NCBI GenBank assembly: GCA_035526765.1
Contig: DATLBS010000030.1
Coordinates: forward strand, 191,153 to 255,152
Direction of reading: 5' to 3'
From: Thermoplasmatota archaeon
Lineage (GTDB): Archaea > Thermoplasmatota > E2 > JACPAO01 > JAHFTW01
Length of the DNA stretch: 64,000 bases
Positions within the stretch are counted from its first letter, which is position 1. Each line of letters opens with the position of its first letter. Shown here piece after piece: positions 6,534 to 62,975 of the stretch. A program made the position numbers and the translations under genes. The notes under the pieces were generated by a model. That model was given only the letters and a program-made list of their open reading frames with translations, had not been told where the DNA came from and did not search any database.

Positions 6534-6659
6534 ACTCGCCACTGCCCAGCGCAGAGGACGCAGAGATCCGAGAGAAGGTTCGACGTCGCGGCGAGCAAAC
6601 CACACCACTCCCCTTCTCTACGCTCTCTGCGGCTGGTCGAAGCGGGAGGCGGTGCTGAG

Positions 6660-7088: not shown

Positions 7089-7363
7089 GGGTGGATCGCA
7101 GACGTGCAAAGAGAAGGCCGTTGCGCACGGGGGTGGGTGGTTGCCGCGTTCCGAACGCCACGGAGCACACGGAACCCACGGACCGGACCAGTTGTGATGA
7201 CGGACCCCTGGACTCTGTCGTGCAACCCGCCTCCGTGGCTTCCGTGGATTCCGTAGCTACCGTAGGGCGGCACTGGCAACTTGACGGCCCTACCTACAAT
7301 GTCTCAGTGGGAATTTCCCAGCGACCCAGACTTCGCTCGAGATTTCACGCCGTGACTAGGTTC

Positions 7364-10699: not shown

Positions 10700-11110
10700 A
10701 CGGCCCCGCAAGGCGCCACTGCGACTTCACGCGGATGTCGCGGAACACGCGGAGATTTGCCCCCCCGAGCCAGACGCCGCCACCACGAGTCCGCGTTCTC
10801 CGTGCGTTCCGCGTGACGTCTTCGGCGGCGCGGCTGCGCCGCGCCCCAAATCCATCGCTTGCAATACCAACCCGTTGGGCTAGCCGGCCGCGCCGCCGTC
10901 GCAGGAGTGTTTGACTGGTTGGGGGTCTACGACGGACCGATGGGTCGTGCCGGGACCAGGGCGACCCATCCAAGTCATCTGTGGCATCTGTGGGTTCGGC
11001 AGGTCGCGCAACACCGCAACAGGAAACCGCACCTCCCATTCTCTGCGACCTCTGCGGCTGGCAGTCGCGCAGGGCGGAACGCTCATGAGCAATCCTCGCG
11101 TCGCGCCGGC

Positions 11111-16670: not shown

Positions 16671-16787
16671 TCAGGCGCGCGACTCAGGCCTCCGACATAA
16701 GGCTTGGGTGGAAGGGGAAGGTTGGCTTCGGCAACGCAAGCACTGTCCGGAACCCTTTCAAGCAGCCCCCGGCCTGCGGCGACCAGC

Positions 16788-17351
16788 ATGTTCCTGTTCG
16801 AGCTGACCCGCAAGGAGACCCTGGGCGAGGCCAACTTCCCCCTCCAGGGGTACCAGGTCAAGCTGACCATCAGCCTGGACTCCGCCCCCGAGGTCGACCT
16901 TCCCCCCAAGGCGCGCCGCCACCTGGCCGCCTGGGTCCTGCAGGAGCTGGCCGAGTCCCTCGACGAGGAGGAGCTGGTGGCCGCCAACGCCCCCGGCTTC
17001 ACCGTGCAGACCGAGACGCCCAGCGCCTCGGAACTGGCCCTGCGCCGCACCGATGGCTGGATGCAGCCCGACGGCCTCGACCTGCGCATCGTCAAGTCGG
17101 CCCACCGCATCATCCTCGAGGTCGCGGAGCGCGGGGTCAGCGGCCGCGTCGTGCTGGCCAGCGAGCTTGTCGGCGCCTCCGGCCTGAGCGCCCCCACCAT
17201 CGGGCGGCTGCTGCGCGACGGCGAGCCCGCCAACGACTACCTCAAGCAGTACGTCATGGTGACCCCCAGCGGCCGCACGAAGGCGCTGGACCTCACGCCC
17301 GCTGGGCGGTTGCTGGCCTCGAAGATCAGGGCTGGCAGCATCCCTGCCTGA
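16788..17351 (+). CDS. Hypothetical protein with a C-terminal winged-helix DNA-binding domain (putative regulator)
   Basis: C-terminal …RVVLASELVGASGLSAPTIGRLLRDGEPANDYLKQYVMVTPSGRTKALDLTPAGRLLA is a TrmB/MarR-like wHTH. Start at the ATG at 16788. Confidence 0.5.
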   Translation: MFLFELTRKETLGEANFPLQGYQVKLTISLDSAPEVDLPPKARRHLAAWVLQELAESLDEEELVAANAPGFTVQTETPSASELALRRTDGWMQPDGLDLRIVKSAHRIILEVAERGVSGRVVLASELVGASGLSAPTIGRLLRDGEPANDYLKQYVMVTPSGRTKALDLTPAGRLLASKIRAGSIPA

Positions 17352-17474
17352 CCGGCCCACCGAACAGGGATTTCGGGGAAACTTGCAACGACCGTGGTCC
17401 CCGGAACCCCCGTAATCCCTGTTTTAGCGGGCGAGGACGCGATGGCTTGAAACCCCCAATTGGAATCCAACCGC

Positions 17475-25201: not shown

Positions 25202-25822
25202 ATGCCCCTTCGCCTCGTCACGCTGGACCTCGACGGGACGCTCATCCCGCGCGACACCGTGTTCGCCGCCGTGCTGCGGGAGAACGGCAGGGCCCGCGAG
25301 GTGGAGGAGTCGGATGCGCGCTACTTCGCGGGGAAGACCACCCTGGCGGAATGCTTCTGGGAGCAGTGGGCGTGGGTCAAGCCCCTGTCGCCCGCGGACA
25401 TCCACCGGGCCCTGCGCAAGGCCAGCTGGCTTCCCGGCATCGGCGAGGGGGTCCGGCAGCTGAAGGAGGCGGGGCTCAAGGTGTGCCTCCTCACGGACCA
25501 GCCCAGCACGTTCACGGATTTCCTTGGGCGGTGGGGCCTCACCGATGCCATCTGCAGCCCGGTCACGGTCAAGGAGGGACGGCAGGTCGCCATCGAGGCC
25601 CGCTTCGACAAGCTTGCGAACCTGCGGCAACGCCTGGGGCAGTGGGGCATCGACCCGGGCGACGTGTGCCACGTCGGCAATGGCGTCAACGACGTTCCGG
25701 TGTTCGAGGCCGTGGGAGCATCGGTGGCCTGCTTCGCGCCTCCGGAGGTCACTGGCCGGGCGCGCGTGGTCCTGCCTGAGCCGGCCGACCTGCCCACCAT
25801 CGTCTCCAGGATCCTGCGTTAG
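25202..25822 (+). CDS. HAD-superfamily hydrolase (phosphoserine-phosphatase-like)
   Basis: Motif I VTLDLDGTL. C-terminal …HVGNGVNDVP… is motif IV (GDGxND). Start is 1 nt after the trm5 stop. Confidence 0.8.
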   Translation: MPLRLVTLDLDGTLIPRDTVFAAVLRENGRAREVEESDARYFAGKTTLAECFWEQWAWVKPLSPADIHRALRKASWLPGIGEGVRQLKEAGLKVCLLTDQPSTFTDFLGRWGLTDAICSPVTVKEGRQVAIEARFDKLANLRQRLGQWGIDPGDVCHVGNGVNDVPVFEAVGASVACFAPPEVTGRARVVLPEPADLPTIVSRILR

Positions 25823-25839: not shown

Positions 25840-26100
25840 CCGTACAAGCGGGAAGAAGGAAAGGGAGGAGAGAGGTGTCCGAGGATTGGATGGGAAAAGG
25901 GGTGTCCAAGTGACGGGAAGTGAAGGAGAGGGAAGAGGGAGGTGTCCGAGGATTGGAAGGGAAGAGGGGTGTCCAGGTGATCGGGATGTTGAGAGGGAGG
26001 GGGAGGAGGAAGGTGTCCAGGATAGGGAGAAGGGAGGTGTCCGGGGAGCGGGAAGGGGACGTGGGGGTCCCGGTGGATGGGAAGAGGGAGGGGAAAAGGG
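25840..26100. repeat. Purine-rich tandem repeat: two 67-bp units plus degenerate copies, with six GGTGTCC cores
   Basis: GAGGTGTCCGAGGATTGGA[T/A]GGGAA[A/G]AGGGGTGTCCA[A/G]GTGA recurs at 25871 and 25938. GGTGTCC occurs six times in about 180 bp. The top strand is almost pure purine. Confidence 0.8.
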
Positions 26101-26114
26101 GACCTGCGGCTTGC

Positions 26115-26738
26115 CTACAGGCGGCGGCGCAGCATCAGCAGGCTGCCACCCAGGGCGCCCACGGTGCCGATCATCAGCGCGCCGACCGAGGGGAACACGG
26201 GGATCTCCGTGCTGGGGCCGGTCTCGGTGCCGGGAGGGGTCGTCTCGGTGCCCGGCGGGGTCGTCTCGGTGCCGGTCGGGGTGCTCTCCTCGCACTCCAC
26301 CCAGAAGACCTTCATCTTCTCGTGCTGCTCGTCGCTGACGAAGAGCTTGTAGTGGCCGGACGGGAGCGAGTAGGGCCCGTTCAGGAAGTGGTGGGAGTCC
26401 TCGGTCTGGTCGTCGGCCGTGTAGGTGTCCTCGAGGACGACGGTCTTGTCGCCCGTCGGGGGCCAGGACTTGATCACGATCGTGCCGTGCTCGGCGTCCA
26501 TGTTGAAGCCCTCGACATAGAAGGGGCAGTCGACGTGGGGGTCGTTCTCCATCTCCCCGATGTCGCCCTCGGTGTGCACCTTCACGGTGCCGTTGTTGTT
26601 GCAGTCGGCGGCGTCATCGTCGCCGTCGCACACGGGGGCGGCCATCGCGGGCGTCCCAAGGGCCACGAGGGCAAGCCCCGTGAACAGGAAGAGGGCGGTC
26701 GTCAAGGCTAGCTTTCGGCGGGAGTTTGGGCGCACCAT
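26115..26738 (-). CDS. Secreted Thr/Pro-rich protein with a C-terminal archaeosortase-type sorting signal (hypothetical)
   Basis: Signal peptide MVRPNSRRKLALTTALFLFTGLALVALGTPAMA. Linker TPTGTETTPPGTETTPPGTETGPSTE. C-terminus IPVFPSVGALMIGTVGALGGSLLMLRRRL. Confidence 0.6.
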   Translation of the reverse strand: MVRPNSRRKLALTTALFLFTGLALVALGTPAMAAPVCDGDDDAADCNNNGTVKVHTEGDIGEMENDPHVDCPFYVEGFNMDAEHGTIVIKSWPPTGDKTVVLEDTYTADDQTEDSHHFLNGPYSLPSGHYKLFVSDEQHEKMKVFWVECEESTPTGTETTPPGTETTPPGTETGPSTEIPVFPSVGALMIGTVGALGGSLLMLRRRL

Positions 26739-26913
26739 GCGTTCCACAGACTCTGCTCATCGGACCGCATCCAAAGGGAAGTTGGGACGGATTTTCGGTC
26801 CCCGCACATATTCACGGACAGGCCTCGGCGGCCGGCCGCGCCTCCGCCCCTGCGCAACCCTGGAAAAACGAGGCCGGCCCAGTCCCCTTGTCCTAGCGGC
26901 TTCGTCCCAGCGG

Positions 26914-45714: not shown

Positions 45715-46575
45715 GTGGCTCGCCTACTTGGGGGTGTCGTGGCGGACGCGCATGGGGCCCTGCCCGTGGACGGCCCGGCGCGCTGGGAGCAGTCGATCGT
45801 CGCGTTCTTGCAGCGGCACGTCGAGTCCGCGCACGCCAAGGGGCTCGTGGTCGGGGTGTCCGGCGGCCTGGATTCCGCGGTGGTGGCGGCCCTGGCGGTG
45901 CGCGCCCTGGGCAAGGGGAAGGTCCTGGCCGTCATGCTTCCTGCGCCCGACTCGAACAAGCAGGACAAGCAGCACGCCCTTCTGGGCTGCAAGACCCTTG
46001 GCCTCAAGCCGCTGGAGCATGGCGTCGGCCCCATCGTCGAGGGCCTCGAGAAGACCCTGGGCTACACGCCGGAGGCGCGCGTCCGGGGCAACGCCAAGGC
46101 GCGGGCGCGCATGCTGATCCTGTACGCCGAGGCGCAGAAGCGCGAGTACCTCGTCTGCGGCACCGGCAACAAGTCGGAGATCCTCACGGGCTACTTCACG
46201 AAGTACGGCGACGGGGGCGTCGACGTCAACCCCATCGGCGACCTGTACAAGACGCAGGTGCGGCAGTTGGCGCGCCACCTCGGCGTGCCGAAGCCCATCA
46301 TCGGGAAACCGCCCAGCGCGGGCCTGTACGCCGGGCAGACCGACGAAGGGGACATGGGCCTCACGTACGAGGAGCTGGACGCGGTGCTGCGCGGCATGGA
46401 GCTGAACCTGTCCCTCGACGTCATCGCCCGCCGCACGGGTCTGCCGCGCAAGAAGGTGGAGAAGGTGGAGGGGATGGTGCGGCGCACGGAGCACAAGCGC
46501 CGGATGCCCCTCATCCCGAAGATCGGGGTGCGCACGGTGGGCATCGACTGGCGCCGGTCGGTGCACTGGGACTGA
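45715..46575 (+). CDS. nadE: NH3-dependent NAD+ synthetase
   Basis: …VVGVSGGLDSAVVAAL… PP-loop, …YGDGG…IGDLYKTQV… NadE motifs. GTG start. Confidence 0.9.
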   Translation: MARLLGGVVADAHGALPVDGPARWEQSIVAFLQRHVESAHAKGLVVGVSGGLDSAVVAALAVRALGKGKVLAVMLPAPDSNKQDKQHALLGCKTLGLKPLEHGVGPIVEGLEKTLGYTPEARVRGNAKARARMLILYAEAQKREYLVCGTGNKSEILTGYFTKYGDGGVDVNPIGDLYKTQVRQLARHLGVPKPIIGKPPSAGLYAGQTDEGDMGLTYEELDAVLRGMELNLSLDVIARRTGLPRKKVEKVEGMVRRTEHKRRMPLIPKIGVRTVGIDWRRSVHWD

Positions 46576-46596
46576 AGCCGAGTTCGGCGCCCACCT

Positions 46597-46662
46597 AACC
46601 ACAGATTTCACAGATGACACAGATCGTGGTTGGTTCTGTGAAATCTGTGCAATCTGTGGTTC
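46597..46662. repeat. Inverted array: 3 x CACAGAT (9-bp period) facing 3 x ATCTGTG, forming an imperfect hairpin of about 28 bp between convergent genes
   Basis: aaCCACAGATttCACAGATgaCACAGATcgtggttggttCTGTGaaATCTGTGcaATCTGTGgtt. Locally AT-rich. Confidence 0.8.
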
Positions 46663-46695
46663 GTTGGGTCGCGAACCCCCGCGGCCAGGCTTCCG

Positions 46696-47592
46696 TCACA
46701 CGAATTTGAAGTCCTGCGGCGCCGGGTCGACATAGAAGGTCGTCACGTACAGGTCGAACTCGATGTTCTGGCCCGCCCCGACGCCCAGGAAGCAGTTGAA
46801 CGTCTCCGAGGGGTCGCACACTTCGCCGTAGCCTAGCCCCTCGGGATACACGTCCATCACGAAGACGGTCGTGTTGGCGGGGACCGCGGAGGTGCCATCC
46901 CGGTACGTCTGGCCGGGCTCGATGCGGAACTGGAAGGGGGCGCTGCCGTCGAAGCGGCCGTACTGCTCGTAGGAGGCAAGAGCATCGTCGTCCTGGCCGC
47001 CCCGCACGGTGACATGCAATCCCTGCAGCGCCGGCGAGGCGTCCGGGTCGAACACGAGGTCGGCGAGGACCGTCCTCCACGCGTTCTGCACGGGGAACAC
47101 CGCGCTCGTGTTGGAGGGGAAGATCATGGGGCCGCCCACGCGCGGGTCGGTGAGGAGGGTGTCGCAACTGGGCGTGATGATGAGGGCCTCGAGGGCACAC
47201 TCCATGAAGCCATGGAAGTGGAGCGTCTGGTTGTAGGGGACCAGGCCGGGCAGCGCCTCCAGCACGATGCGGACCTCGTCGGCGGCCATCTCGGGCGAGA
47301 CCGTGAGAAGCTGCGTGCGGAAGCCAAAGGAGGAGACGCGCAGGCCGTGGACGCCGGGAGCAAGGTCGTCGAACCGGAAGACGCCATCCTCGGTGGCCTG
47401 CGTCTCGTTGGTCTCGACCAGCGTGACGTTGGCGGAGAGCGGCCGGAGCCCCTCGTCCACCACGACGCCATGGATGTCCAGCCGGCTTGCCAGCAGGTCC
47501 GTGGTGGTCTGGCTGGCCTCGGGACCCGGGGCGTGGGCACATCCGGCCAGCAGCAGCGCCACGGCGAGGGGGCAGGCCAGGCCGGGGCGCAT
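46696..47592 (-). CDS. Lipoprotein with a carboxypeptidase-regulatory-like (CarbopepD_reg) beta-sandwich domain
   Basis: Lipobox LLLAGC. …IHGVVVDEGLRPLSANVTLVE…DGVFRFDDLAPGVHGLRVSSFGF…. Five sequons. Confidence 0.55.
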   Translation of the reverse strand: MRPGLACPLAVALLLAGCAHAPGPEASQTTTDLLASRLDIHGVVVDEGLRPLSANVTLVETNETQATEDGVFRFDDLAPGVHGLRVSSFGFRTQLLTVSPEMAADEVRIVLEALPGLVPYNQTLHFHGFMECALEALIITPSCDTLLTDPRVGGPMIFPSNTSAVFPVQNAWRTVLADLVFDPDASPALQGLHVTVRGGQDDDALASYEQYGRFDGSAPFQFRIEPGQTYRDGTSAVPANTTVFVMDVYPEGLGYGEVCDPSETFNCFLGVGAGQNIEFDLYVTTFYVDPAPQDFKFV

Positions 47593-47676
47593 GGACGCGC
47601 GAACGCGGCATCTACAAAAGCGCTGGGCCGGCCCCAGGGTGGACATGTCGCGTCGTTCGGAGAGGTGGCCATTGAC

Positions 47677-62909: not shown

Positions 62910-62975
62910 CCGCCACGAATTCCACGGAGTGCACGAAGCCCACGTGTTCGTGGGTTCCGTGGTTTTGGGGGGAGA

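Follow-up and report, generated by a model that had tools for sequence, protein, structure and literature searches.

REPs have been proposed to stabilize mRNA 3' ends, attenuate transcription, and bind gyrase, and protection of 3' ends or a barrier to read-through is a known role of REP/BIME elements. Inverted pairs of Neisseria DUS and Haemophilus USS double as terminators, with one fixed motif per lineage and a link to competence. The omega protein heptads of pSM19035, plasmid iterons, and the GAGY repeats of the AAV ITR each employ one unit and lie beside a binding-protein gene on plasmids or in viruses. IVSs of 23S rRNA are defined by rRNA position and RNase III excision, and we know of none that is built of tandem units or located after a protein-coding gene. 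In structure, REPs are single 20- to 40-bp palindromes tagged GTAG or CGTC (PMC3733652).

Element D was identified in the window (the whole 64,000-nt stretch of Thermoplasmatota archaeon DNA analyzed) and is a member of a widespread class of extragenic tandem-unit palindromes, for which no name was found. It lacked the defining features tested for the canonical terminator, MITE, CRISPR, and REP/RAYT tag.

Element D and its locus

The core of D (46600-46658) was composed of three CACAGAT units facing ATCTGTG-type units across a loop of ~11 nt, and it was located in a 120-bp gap between two convergent genes. The features of the locus were as follows (strand given for the genes):

45715-46575, + strand: nadE, encoding NH3-dependent NAD+ synthase (Pfam PF02540 NAD_synthase, 6.6e-84); stop 22 nt before array D
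46582-46599: outer left flank of the D palindrome, CCCACCTAA, partly complementary to 46659-46676, with outer pairs present in the fold
46600-46626: left (5') arm, three exact CACAGAT units with differing 2-nt spacers (TT, GA, CG)
46625-46633: central loop/spacer, CGTGGTTGG, with ~10-11 nt between the core arms
46634-46658: right (3') arm, TTCTGTG (6/7), ATCTGTG, ATCTGTG, spaced 9 nt apart and separated by AA and CA
46659-46676: outer right flank, GTTCGTTGGGTCGCGAAC, complementary to the left flank
46696-47646, - strand: putative lipoprotein gene with a CarboxypepD_reg domain, convergent to nadE; stop ~34 nt beyond array D

The NadE product was 100% identical to an NAD+ synthase of 'Candidatus Thermoplasmatota archaeon', and the N-terminus of the 46696-47646 product displayed the lipobox-like LLLAGC; the window genes (aIF-2 and a diphthamide-synthase-like gene) identified the host as an archaeon. 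The preliminary description had placed D in an AT-enriched 120-bp region between convergent 3' ends, and GC contents were 0.575 in the gap, 0.44 in the array, and 0.70 in the window.

Exact copies of CACAGAT were found on the + strand at 46600, 46609, and 46618 (9-nt spacing) and exact copies of ATCTGTG at 46643 and 46652, and both arms had period 9 (TRF). The remaining right-arm unit (46634-46640) read TTCTGTG, a 6/7 match to ATCTGTG, and thus the right arm was counted as two exact copies plus one near copy; the initial formula of 3 x CACAGAT facing 3 x ATCTGTG was correct for the left arm and was amended accordingly for the right. The cores were alike from unit to unit, but the 2-nt spacers were not. 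The imperfect palindrome extended to 46582-46676 (42-nt arms, 81% complementary), which was the longest inverted repeat detected by an inverted-repeat search of the window, and its outer left flank looks like a degenerate older unit.

A hairpin of roughly 28 bp had been predicted, and RNAfold gave 27 pairs within 46597-46662 and 32 over 46590-46668. Compared to shuffled controls, D was far more stable on both strands (z about -7): (i) -42.7 kcal/mol versus -20.4 +/- 3.1 for the shuffles on the + strand (z -7.3; 0/200 shuffles as good) and (ii) -41.2 kcal/mol on the - strand (z -7.0).

Related arrays in the window

Including D and 7157-7265, the tandem-unit palindromes of the window numbered six, and a solo half-copy of D was also present. 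The six arrays had six different, related cores, all of them purine-first; the members other than D were as follows:

6550-6631: member F, CAGAGGA, CAGAGAT, and GAGAGAA facing CTTCTCT and GCTCTCTG; weak fold (z -1.3); flanked by convergent genes whose stops are 17 nt and 30 nt away
7157-7265: member A, 3 x CACGGA facing 3-4 x TCCGTR; period 9; 49-nt spacer; between divergent gene starts; fold z -3.65
10727-10815: member B, 3 x CGCGGA facing TCCGCG, TCCGTG, and TCCGCG; period 9; fold z -3.9
10976-11013, + strand: solo half-copy C of a D-type element, ATCTGTG x2 plus a D-like 3' flank, GGGTTCGGCAGGTCGCGCAAC; no partner arm, no hairpin; fold z +0.9
17363-17423: member G, ACAGGGAtt and TCGGGGA facing CCCCG..ATCCCTGT; fold z -2.65; beginning 12 nt past the stop of ORF 16704-17351 and followed by TTTT
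62913-62963: member E, CACGAA, CACGGA, and CACGAA facing TTCGTG and TCCGTG; fold z -2.1; 13 nt past the stop of an acylphosphatase-domain gene on the - strand

The architecture that had been noted as common to D and 7157-7265 was thus confirmed in member A, and the variant units of member E were matched arm to arm. F and D lay between convergent genes, and G and E lay 12-13 nt past a stop. The genes beside the arrays other than D encoded MauE/HMBD, purP-like, zinc-ribbon, acylphosphatase-domain, and BNR-repeat proteins. Half-copy C lay ~35.6 kb from D and had part of the D 3'-flank sequence in common (TTCG and GGTCGCG). Within these 64 kb, the copies found were the six arrays with differing cores plus the half-copy; since all cores differed, the six arrays are not recent copies of one master.

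The pattern CACRGAN3CACRGA (<=1 mismatch) had 16 matches in the window versus 1.7 +/- 1.4 expected, and 0/100 shuffles reached 16. A window scan for repeated 5-mers with a downstream repeated reverse complement gave four clusters at period 9, one each at periods 11 and 13, and none at periods 6-8, 10, and 12.

Distribution in other genomes

The class was defined by at least two tandem 7- to 11-nt units per arm, inverted arms, and the purine-rich arm placed 5', and D belonged to it with 3+3 units, period 9, and CACAGAT first. Genome stretches with the same architecture numbered at least 120 and came from many bacterial phyla and from Methanosarcinales; the architecture was also found in viral contigs (some of them carrying several arrays) and in Bacteroides and Gemmatirosa replicons; the lineages included Gemmatimonadota, Acidobacteriota, Planctomycetota, Chloroflexota, Bacteroidota, Thermoplasmatota, and Methanosarcinales. 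Of the options raised in the preliminary description, a family of dispersed repeats was supported, and on a much wider scale than had been suspected, given the six palindromes and the half-copy in the window and the presence of the class in bacterial phyla, archaea, and viral contigs. In IMG/VR, viral stretches numbered 43 for core CACAGA, 24 for CACGGA, and 0-1 for scrambled cores.

Array density was 6-7 in 64 kb for the window and ~22 in 290 kb for Gemmatirosa kalamazoonensis. No array was found in a 254-kb unselected control set, which consisted of loci from one metagenome scan with NadE whose homologues were distant (<=54% identity), hence not orthologous loci, and no array match was found among 5,426 Escherichia coli genomes. 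BLAST gave nothing for the D region against plasmids and nothing for a consensus array against phages and E. coli. Rfam returned sub-threshold miRNA-hairpin noise for D (best 22 bits versus a threshold of 100) and no family covering the arrays in 20 related loci. The full-text literature, as far as searchable, contained no description of tandem-unit polar palindromes. The sole sequence match in the literature came from a paper on Bacteroides fragilis, where it was a PCR primer.

Some lineages had multi-copy arrays with common flanks (L024/L098, L059, and L108) or arrays nested within other arrays (L140 and L040). In the CPR bacterium L078, a 23S rRNA gene carried the array as a 90-nt inserted hairpin, and arrays are thus tolerated as transcribed hairpins.

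Units, polarity, and pairing of the class

Class arms contained 2-4 units, each 7-11 nt long, and the most frequent period was 9 nt; within an array, the 6- to 7-nt cores were near-identical and the 1- to 3-nt spacers variable, and the most frequent core was CRCRGA(K). The purine-rich arm lay 5' on both strands: (i) IMG/VR had 43 purine-first arrays versus 0 reversed ones with the same units, and (ii) in an unselected 290 kb of G. kalamazoonensis plasmid 2, the 5' half was purine-rich in 20 of the 24 candidates (two of the 24 being probable coding sequences), with one clear reversal. The unit families of G. kalamazoonensis, namely CRCRGAG, GAGGGCAG, GACAGGAT, ACTGAAGGAGG, and GGAGCGT, were unrelated. 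Since this polarity is common to unrelated sequences and the same on both strands, RNA or ssDNA is a likelier basis for it than a single protein that binds dsDNA.

Arm-to-arm complementarity was present at core position 7 in 96% of arrays and at two spacer positions in 51% and 43% (29% and 34% by chance). Complementary cores with loosely complementary spacers suggest paired helices with free internal loops. Odd unit spacings appeared mirrored from arm to arm, e.g., an outermost spacing of 8 nt on both sides, in uncounted examples inspected by eye. Unit numbers were unequal between arms in 50/124 arrays, and deviant core positions were compensated in register in only 12-13%. In L010 and L066, the arms consistently differed at core position 7, each arm being homogeneous. 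Bacterial members displayed an A-rich 5' flank, a T-rich 3' flank, and a conserved WTTARC boundary (WTTARC|CACAGAG). Flank composition showed no asymmetry (p = 0.28), and neither did sense versus antisense folding energy (61 arrays, p = 0.41), where RNA-specific selection for G-U pairs would appear as an asymmetry.

Gene context

Arrays were usually located 3-60 nt past stop codons, with a median stop-to-array distance of 28 nt. A crude classification of pattern-selected arrays gave 48 tandem, 23 convergent, and 10 divergent contexts, and the 21 classified arrays of G. kalamazoonensis comprised 11 convergent, 7 tandem, and 3 divergent ones. For many class members, the next gene in the same orientation begins 6-50 nt past the array, which makes read-through necessary. 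A Bacteroides array sat between gmd and fcl, where read-through is necessary because there is no room for a promoter before fcl.

Turnover at orthologous sites

The site 3' of nadE was compared among relatives of the window. L127 (NadE 82% identical) contained CACGAAT units inside the same AACCAC...GTGGTT boundary, L172 (86%) a heterogeneous, degenerate array, L121 (85%) GAGAAC units, and L126 (87%) a left arm alone; L122, L125, L128, and L173 had no array at this site, and L123/L124 and L174 had a different hairpin-rich insert. The CarboxypepD_reg lipoprotein gene also neighbored the locus in L122 and L127. The gmd-fcl array was flipped in orientation between Bacteroides ovatus and Bacteroides finegoldii. 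Orthologous arrays undergo concerted core change, arm loss, and flipping.

Discussion

We tentatively read D as a REP-like, orientation-independent 3'-end hairpin that would evolve by unit slippage and arm-to-arm correction, and whose function we infer (probability roughly 0.45). The array would act at the single-strand level, giving the same long hairpin whichever side is transcribed. Small symmetric internal loops would interrupt its 7-bp helices, and purines would predominate in its 5' arm and pyrimidines in its 3' arm; strict polarity fits such a single-strand role working in both directions. The convergent nadE and lipoprotein mRNAs would both end in, or run into, the D hairpin, which may block 3'-to-5' exonucleases and/or partially hinder, or insulate against, transcription that runs on into the gene opposite. 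On this reading, the two genes are probably insulated from each other by this shared hairpin and not by a classical terminator.

As judged from the comparisons among relatives, array size would change by unit slippage, and the arms would be kept matched by pairing selection together with arm-to-arm recombination or template switching; slippage plus arm matching would explain the concerted core changes, unequal unit numbers, and flipped centers among relatives. Several observations run counter to this reading: member A lies between divergent gene starts, the gmd-fcl array is necessarily read through, D has no T-run, folding energy and flank composition show no asymmetry, the arms of L010 and L066 differ at core position 7, and few deviant core positions are compensated in register. 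Pairing selection alone also leaves the preferred CRCRGA(K) core unexplained, with 0-1 viral stretches for scrambled cores versus 43 for CACAGA and 24 for CACGGA.

It is somewhat unlikely that the arrays are selfish or neutral mobile palindromes (REPIN- or MITE-like) with no host function, copied by some enzyme, e.g., an HUH/IS200-like one acting on ssDNA, and persisting wherever the hairpin is harmless. Mobility would fit the genome-specific abundance (the window and G. kalamazoonensis rich, the control set and E. coli empty), the half-copy carrying part of the D 3' flank, the multi-copy and nested arrays, the 23S rRNA gene insertion, the viral contigs with sometimes several arrays each, and the varying presence of arrays at orthologous sites, and one core across domains suggests common descent plus horizontal transfer. 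However, no target-site duplication was found: the sequence flanking D and 244 array ends continued the palindrome in inverted and not direct form. No neighbor gene recurred across 120 loci, where the families recovered by ORF clustering were all generic (ABC ATPases, histidine kinases, SDRs, and hydrolases). Phmmer searches of the window and of 2.4 Mb of retrieved loci, a weak test, gave no match to an IS200/RAYT-like ORF. Strict polarity over unrelated unit families is unexpected under sequence-specific transposition, and the excess of arrays at convergent junctions suggests that their position is under selection.

A broader and doubtful proposal is that the arrays are the visible part of an unrecognized system in Bacteria, Archaea, and their viruses, and that a dedicated trans-acting factor, perhaps a nuclease, a transposase, or an RNA-binding or processing protein, makes, maintains, or reads them. 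Such a system would parallel REP/RAYT and obey rules of its own, namely purine-first polarity, preference for a 9-nt period, and concerted unit replacement.

The protein-binding site raised in the preliminary description was not sustained, and we consider it improbable that the heptamers are head-to-head sites on dsDNA for a multimeric protein. Possible analogues of such sites are iterons or centromere-like sites, operators, and BIME-like sites that bind gyrase or a nucleoid protein between convergent genes. The identical cores with differing spacers, the arms of L010 and L066 that are homogeneous but differ from each other at position 7, and the specificity of the core relative to scrambled versions would suit a bound protein; positive supercoils accumulate between convergent genes, and the archaeal lineages with arrays presumably all encode gyrase, which would also count in its favor. 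Against it, several unrelated units share one architecture and polarity within one genome (six cores in the window alone), spacing varies from 7 to 11 nt and appears mirrored in the examples inspected, which fits hairpin geometry better than a rigid lattice, the core is wholly changed between orthologues (CACAGAT to CACGAAT), and no DNA-binding gene co-occurs with the arrays.

The bidirectional terminator that had also been suggested was supported in part: arrays lie just past stops, about half of the classified Gemmatirosa arrays are convergent, and D itself folds very stably in either strand and separates two convergent 3' ends; the A-rich and T-rich flanks of bacterial members also agree with it, and general hybrid thermodynamics would predict that a pyrimidine-rich 3' arm gives a weak RNA:DNA hybrid in both directions. 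It is nevertheless very unlikely that the hairpin itself releases RNA polymerase from both genes, since a scan of 46300-47000 for intrinsic sites (GC-rich stem, 3- to 8-nt loop, adjoining T run) gave 0 sites, the ~10- to 11-nt loop of D exceeds the limit of that scan, no T5 run is present on either strand of the 120-bp gap, and many members, like the gmd-fcl array, need read-through. Archaeal termination relies on oligo-T, and to our knowledge archaeal RNA polymerase does not need hairpins for it.

If the 3'-end hairpin reading is true, a common and easily recognized intergenic feature of many poorly studied lineages has been left unannotated, and annotation could use the arrays as markers of gene 3' ends and of junctions between convergent genes. 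Their constrained polarity, period, and core sequence raise concrete questions, and they would offer a natural system for concerted evolution and inversion of small palindromes. Culturable hosts make the class directly testable: G. kalamazoonensis KBS708, and B. ovatus or B. finegoldii for the gmd-fcl array.

Comparison with known systems

Resemblances to single motifs were considered and rejected: DnaA boxes (9-mers and CCACA similar, but first positions misfit and the host is an archaeon), CsrA GGA sites (motifs locked in stems; archaea have no CsrA), CRP and LexA half-sites (wrong orientation), Type III restriction sites (CAGAG, CGAAT, and CGAAG inside units; probably coincidence), the V(D)J heptamer CACAGTG (coincidental), Shine-Dalgarno/anti-Shine-Dalgarno stacks (GGAG or AGGA in many 5' arms but not in D; Bacteroides seldom uses SD), and telomerase-like addition at breaks (which predicts polarity but not locus-specific cores).

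D contained neither the TIRs flanked by direct target-site duplication of MITEs nor the 23- to 50-nt direct repeats with unique spacers of similar length of CRISPRs, its units being 7 nt, its spacers 2 nt, and its arms inverted. An adjacent binding-protein gene, as at iterons, centromeres, and operators, was also absent, the flanking genes being unrelated housekeeping ones. Omega heptads and iterons likewise combine short direct and inverted units, and the AAV repeats lie inside a hairpin stem; the arrays differ from them in being chromosomal, scattered after housekeeping genes, and made of many unit sequences with no linked gene. DUS/USS share a specific short inverted motif forming a hairpin just downstream of genes, but the array units are tandem, their cores vary by locus in one genome, and they span many phyla and both domains. 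The array of L078, as a hairpin insertion in 23S rRNA, is comparable to an IVS. Intrinsic bidirectional terminators share with D the stable hairpin between convergent genes, and with bacterial class members the A-rich/T-rich flanks, but they have a short GC-rich stem free of internal repeats, a 3- to 8-nt loop, and an adjoining U-tract, while D lacks a T-run and carries an 11-nt loop on a ~27- to 32-bp stem built from repeated units.

REP/BIME/REPIN elements have several features in common with the proposed 3'-end hairpin: D is likewise an imperfect extragenic palindrome near gene 3' ends, and class members are short palindromes located mostly just past stops or between cistrons, with genome-specific abundance and coexisting families. 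They differ in that (i) GTAG, CTAC, CGTC, and GACG are all absent from 46582-46676, (ii) the class has no E. coli match and occurs in Archaea and viral contigs, and (iii) its arms are composed of tandem 7- to 11-nt units with purine-first polarity.

Sequence and setting of element D

Element D (46597-46662) read aac-CACAGAT-tt-CACAGAT-ga-CACAGAT-cgtggttggt-TCTGTG-aa-ATCTGTG-ca-ATCTGTG-gttc, and it displayed two inverted arms of period 9 as determined by TRF, in line with the 9-bp periodicity described previously. Its left arm harbored three exact CACAGAT units (at 46600, 46609, and 46618), while its right arm had two exact ATCTGTG units (at 46643 and 46652) plus an innermost TTCTGTG matching at six of seven positions; the preliminary description of three units facing three thus stood for the left arm and for two units of the right. 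The spacers were all unlike (TT, GA, and CG). The RNA folded into a single hairpin, as had been proposed, with 27 pairs within 46597-46662 and 32 pairs across 46590-46668; the folding energy was -42.7 kcal/mol (z = -7.3) on the + strand and -41.2 kcal/mol (z = -7.0) on the - strand, and none of 200 shuffles was as good on either strand. The imperfect palindrome around D extended to 46582-46676 and was the longest inverted repeat of the window. D was a real, very stable, and symmetric palindrome.

The convergent setting and the AT enrichment noted before were both recovered, with a 120-bp gap between the following genes and a GC content of 0.575 in this gap and 0.44 in the array versus 0.70 in the window:
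45715-46575, + strand, nadE, converging on the gap of D
46696-47646, - strand, CarboxypepD_reg lipoprotein gene, converging on the gap of D

The window additionally encoded aIF-2 and a diphthamide-synthase-like protein, and its NadE shared 100% identity with a protein from a 'Candidatus Thermoplasmatota archaeon' MAG; the host was therefore archaeal. Around D, the promoter scan gave no sigma-70-like promoter and the terminator scan no intrinsic-terminator-like site; a T-run was absent on both sides.

Related arrays in the window

The two-unit pattern CACRGAN3CACRGA had 16 matches in the window versus 1.7 expected. The scan of the window for a repeated 5-mer with its reverse complement repeated downstream gave four clusters of period 9, none of periods 6-8, 10, or 12, and one each of periods 11 and 13. 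Six arrays were recognized:
6550-6631, member F, units CAGAGGA, CAGAGAT, and GAGAGAA, between convergent genes
7157-7265, member A, units CACGGA, between divergent gene starts
10727-10815, member B, units CGCGGA, context ambiguous
17363-17423, member G, units ACAGGGA and TCGGGGA, 12 nt past a stop codon
46597-46662, member D, units CACAGAT, between convergent genes
62913-62963, member E, units CACGAA and CACGGA, 13 nt past a stop codon

The purine-rich arm came first in all six, the flanking genes were unrelated housekeeping genes, and most members beat shuffles in folding (z from -2.1 to -3.9), F being weak (z = -1.3). The region 10976-11013 contained two ATCTGTG units and 3' flank pieces (TTCG and GGTCGCG) common to the right flank of D; it had no partner arm and formed no hairpin, and it was therefore counted as a solo half-copy of the D type. 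A separate purine-rich tandem repeat, with about 2.5 copies of a 67-nt unit, 24-nt sub-repeats, and the underlying motif GGAGGTGTCC(R)AGG, was located at 25855-26100 and filled the space that separates ORF 25202-25822 (+) from ORF 26115-26747 (-).

Distribution and rules of the class

D belonged to a large class with defined rules. The exact scan for CACAGA-N3-CACAGA, a 5-35-nt gap, and TCTGTG-N3-TCTGTG, with one genome per species and about two chance matches by our own estimate, gave at least 120 stretches; together with the six arrays and the half-copy of the window, the dispersed family suspected at the outset proved far larger than anticipated. Among the matches listed, the hosts included (i) bacteria of Planctomycetota, Verrucomicrobiota, Chloroflexota, Acidobacteriota, Pseudomonadota, Desulfobacterota, Bacteroidota, Bacillota, and Gemmatimonadota plus one CPR bacterium and (ii) archaea of Methanosarcinales and Methanoperedens. 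The consensus array had no match among 5,426 E. coli genomes and was found in replicons of Bacteroides ovatus and B. finegoldii and in Gemmatirosa kalamazoonensis megaplasmids; a 254-kb locus set not picked for arrays contained none, and array abundance was therefore specific to certain genomes.

The pattern-selected arrays had the unit logo C-A-C-A-G-A-(G 0.76/T 0.16) with two variable positions of purine bias after it, 2-3 units per arm (up to 8 under more permissive counting), and a conserved outer boundary in which an A-rich stretch led through WTTARC into CACAGAG. Loci from the CACAGA scan also harbored the cores CGCAGAG, CGCAAAG, CACGGAT, CGCGGAT, CACGAAG, and ACGAAT, with periods 8-11. 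Core, period, and polarity were compared by exact patterns in IMG/VR.

Stretches matching exact array patterns in IMG/VR
CACAGA, period 9, purine-rich arm first: 43
CACAGA, period 9, polarity reversed: 0
CACAGA, period 8: 15
CACAGA, period 10: 5
CACGGA, period 9: 24
Scrambled core GACAAC: 1
Scrambled core CAAGCA: 0

Rare reversed arrays with the pyrimidine-rich arm first were seen at L363:47173-47238 (CGCAGAT units) and L103:3162-3249 (CACAGAG units). Long direct CACAGA tandem repeats with 9-nt spacing were present in viral contigs, several of them from giant-virus bins (L265, L270, L294, and others); these probably represent something else and may be coding repeats. An unrelated metagenome contig carried a period-7 inverted array of AAATCAG-like facing GGATTT-like units (L244:2779-2876).

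Class members were preferentially sited at the 3' ends of genes and at junctions of convergent genes. For the pattern-selected arrays, stop codon and array were a median of 28 nt apart, and the crude gene context was tandem for 48, convergent for 23, and divergent for 10.

For an unselected census, a generic scan covered 290 kb from plasmid 2 of G. kalamazoonensis (GC 0.73) and gave 24 candidates, about 22 of which were real tandem-unit palindromes. They fell into unrelated unit families, namely CRCRGAG (period 9), GAGGGCAG (period 8), GACAGGAT, ACTGAAGGAGG, CTCGGGA (period 7), and GGAGCGT (period 7). The 5' half was purine-rich in 20 of the 24 candidates, with one clear reversal; the contexts from GC3-based gene calls were 11 convergent, 7 tandem, and 3 divergent, and many arrays lay 3-60 nt from both stop codons. 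The period-8 family of this species had (GAGGGCAG)n facing (CTGCCCTC)n at L363:45326-45420, L366:16502-16575, L367:21672-21752, and L367:42017-42091; its 5' arm also fitted a G-quadruplex pattern (GGG each 8 nt), and the palindrome at L366:16502 ended 5-6 nt short of both predicted gene ends.

Turnover of arrays

Turnover of the arrays was rapid: units were gained and lost, replaced in concert, or inverted. The site 3' of nadE was compared among relatives:
L127, NadE 82%: AACCACGAATTGCACGAAG-AGAG-TTTCGTGACATTCGTGGAATTCGTGGTT, with the boundary of D, yet all units CACGAAT
L172, NadE 86%: degenerate, heterogeneous array keeping the AACCAC start
L121, NadE 85%: period-9 array of GAGAAC units
L126, NadE 87%: left arm only
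L122, L125, L128, and L173, NadE 81-86%: no array
L123/L124 and L174, NadE 78% and 81%: array absent, site occupied by another, hairpin-rich insert

In the last group (L174:1060-1200 and L123/L124:3840-4190), the last 35-39 nt of nadE were duplicated downstream and the copies flanked a GC-rich insert of about 62 nt in L174 and about 290 nt in L123/L124, an arrangement suggestive of an insertion event that left a long duplication of target or att-like type. L123 also carried a PIN plus MazE-antitoxin pair (697-1312) between diphthamide-synthase-like and CN-hydrolase genes, unlike the gene order of the window.

The 100-nt gmd-fcl spacer contained an array in both B. ovatus and B. finegoldii (L255:3001-3066 and L361:2501-2564), with inner units and loop inverted between the two species; betaproteobacterial L043 and L107 shared an array with cores kept and with different spacers and loop. 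CACAGAG arrays were nested inside CGCAAAG arms (L140:701-756 and L140:1764-1810) or CGCAGAG arms (L040:3095-3147). A Candidatus Falkowbacteria MAG (CPR) carried two CACAGAT arrays inside its 23S rRNA gene (L078:798-876 and L078:1486-1544), one being a 90-nt insertion at about 225-232 in Rfam LSU model coordinates.

Cores were near-identical inside an array, while spacers were often all unlike. Core position 7 was complementary between arms in 96% of arrays, and the two spacer positions in only 51% and 43% versus 29% and 34% by chance. Odd unit spacings looked mirrored across arms in examples viewed by eye; unit numbers differed between arms in 50 of 124 arrays, and in-register compensation occurred at only 12-13% of deviant core positions. 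Two arrays (L010 and L066) had a consistent between-arm difference at one core position. Identical cores with free spacers could arise by tandem unit duplication if purifying selection then acted on the paired positions alone, and concerted core change would need array contraction and then re-expansion.

Possible roles and comparison with known systems

Because unrelated units had one architecture and one polarity on both strands, the constraint would most simply act on single-stranded nucleic acid (RNA or ssDNA) and not through one dsDNA-binding protein. RNA transcribed from either side would fold into the same hairpin, its 5' arm rich in purines and its 3' arm in pyrimidines, and an orientation-independent 3'-end role, as proposed for REP elements, was therefore favored for D-type arrays. 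Such hairpins would act as a barrier to 3' exonucleases and would lessen the read-through between genes that converge. By established hybrid thermodynamics, the RNA:DNA hybrid of a pyrimidine-rich RNA 3' arm is weak; this might favor hairpin closure in both directions and provide a physical ground for the polarity. The 3'-end hairpin reading does not cover the CRCRGA(K) core preference, the period-9 preference, the between-arm difference in L010 and L066 with the 12-13% compensation, the missing T-run at the archaeal copy D, or the read-through that must cross the Bacteroides gmd-fcl array; member A, sited between divergent gene starts, is at odds with it, and no RNA-specific signal appeared in sense/antisense folding energy (p = 0.41) or flank composition (p = 0.28).

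A selfish REPIN- or MITE-like element was a tentative second choice: the solo half-copy, nested arrays, rRNA insertion, genome-specific abundance, and occurrence in viral contigs all spoke for mobility, but no target duplication was found at D or family array ends, no linked gene recurred around 120 array loci, and phmmer with approximate queries gave no IS200- or RAYT-like transposase match in the window plus 2.4 Mb of fetched loci. The competing readings can hold together; a selfish palindrome, for instance, can double as a 3' hairpin. An array bound by a dsDNA protein was improbable given the many unit families, variable spacing, and wholesale core changes. Equally doubtful was a canonical terminator, whose defining features failed at D; the bidirectional terminator of the preliminary description was plausible in a loose sense only.

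D was rejected as a CRISPR array, MITE, Rfam family, or iteron set, and no description of the class was found in Rfam or the full-text literature searched, both of which are incomplete. REP/BIME was the system closest to D in proposed working; REP is defined by a GTAG/CGTC tag, and D, which had neither tag, fell outside REP on this feature. The class appears to represent a new form of extragenic palindrome, and its strict rules of polarity, period, and core make it worth experimental attention in Gemmatirosa or Bacteroides.
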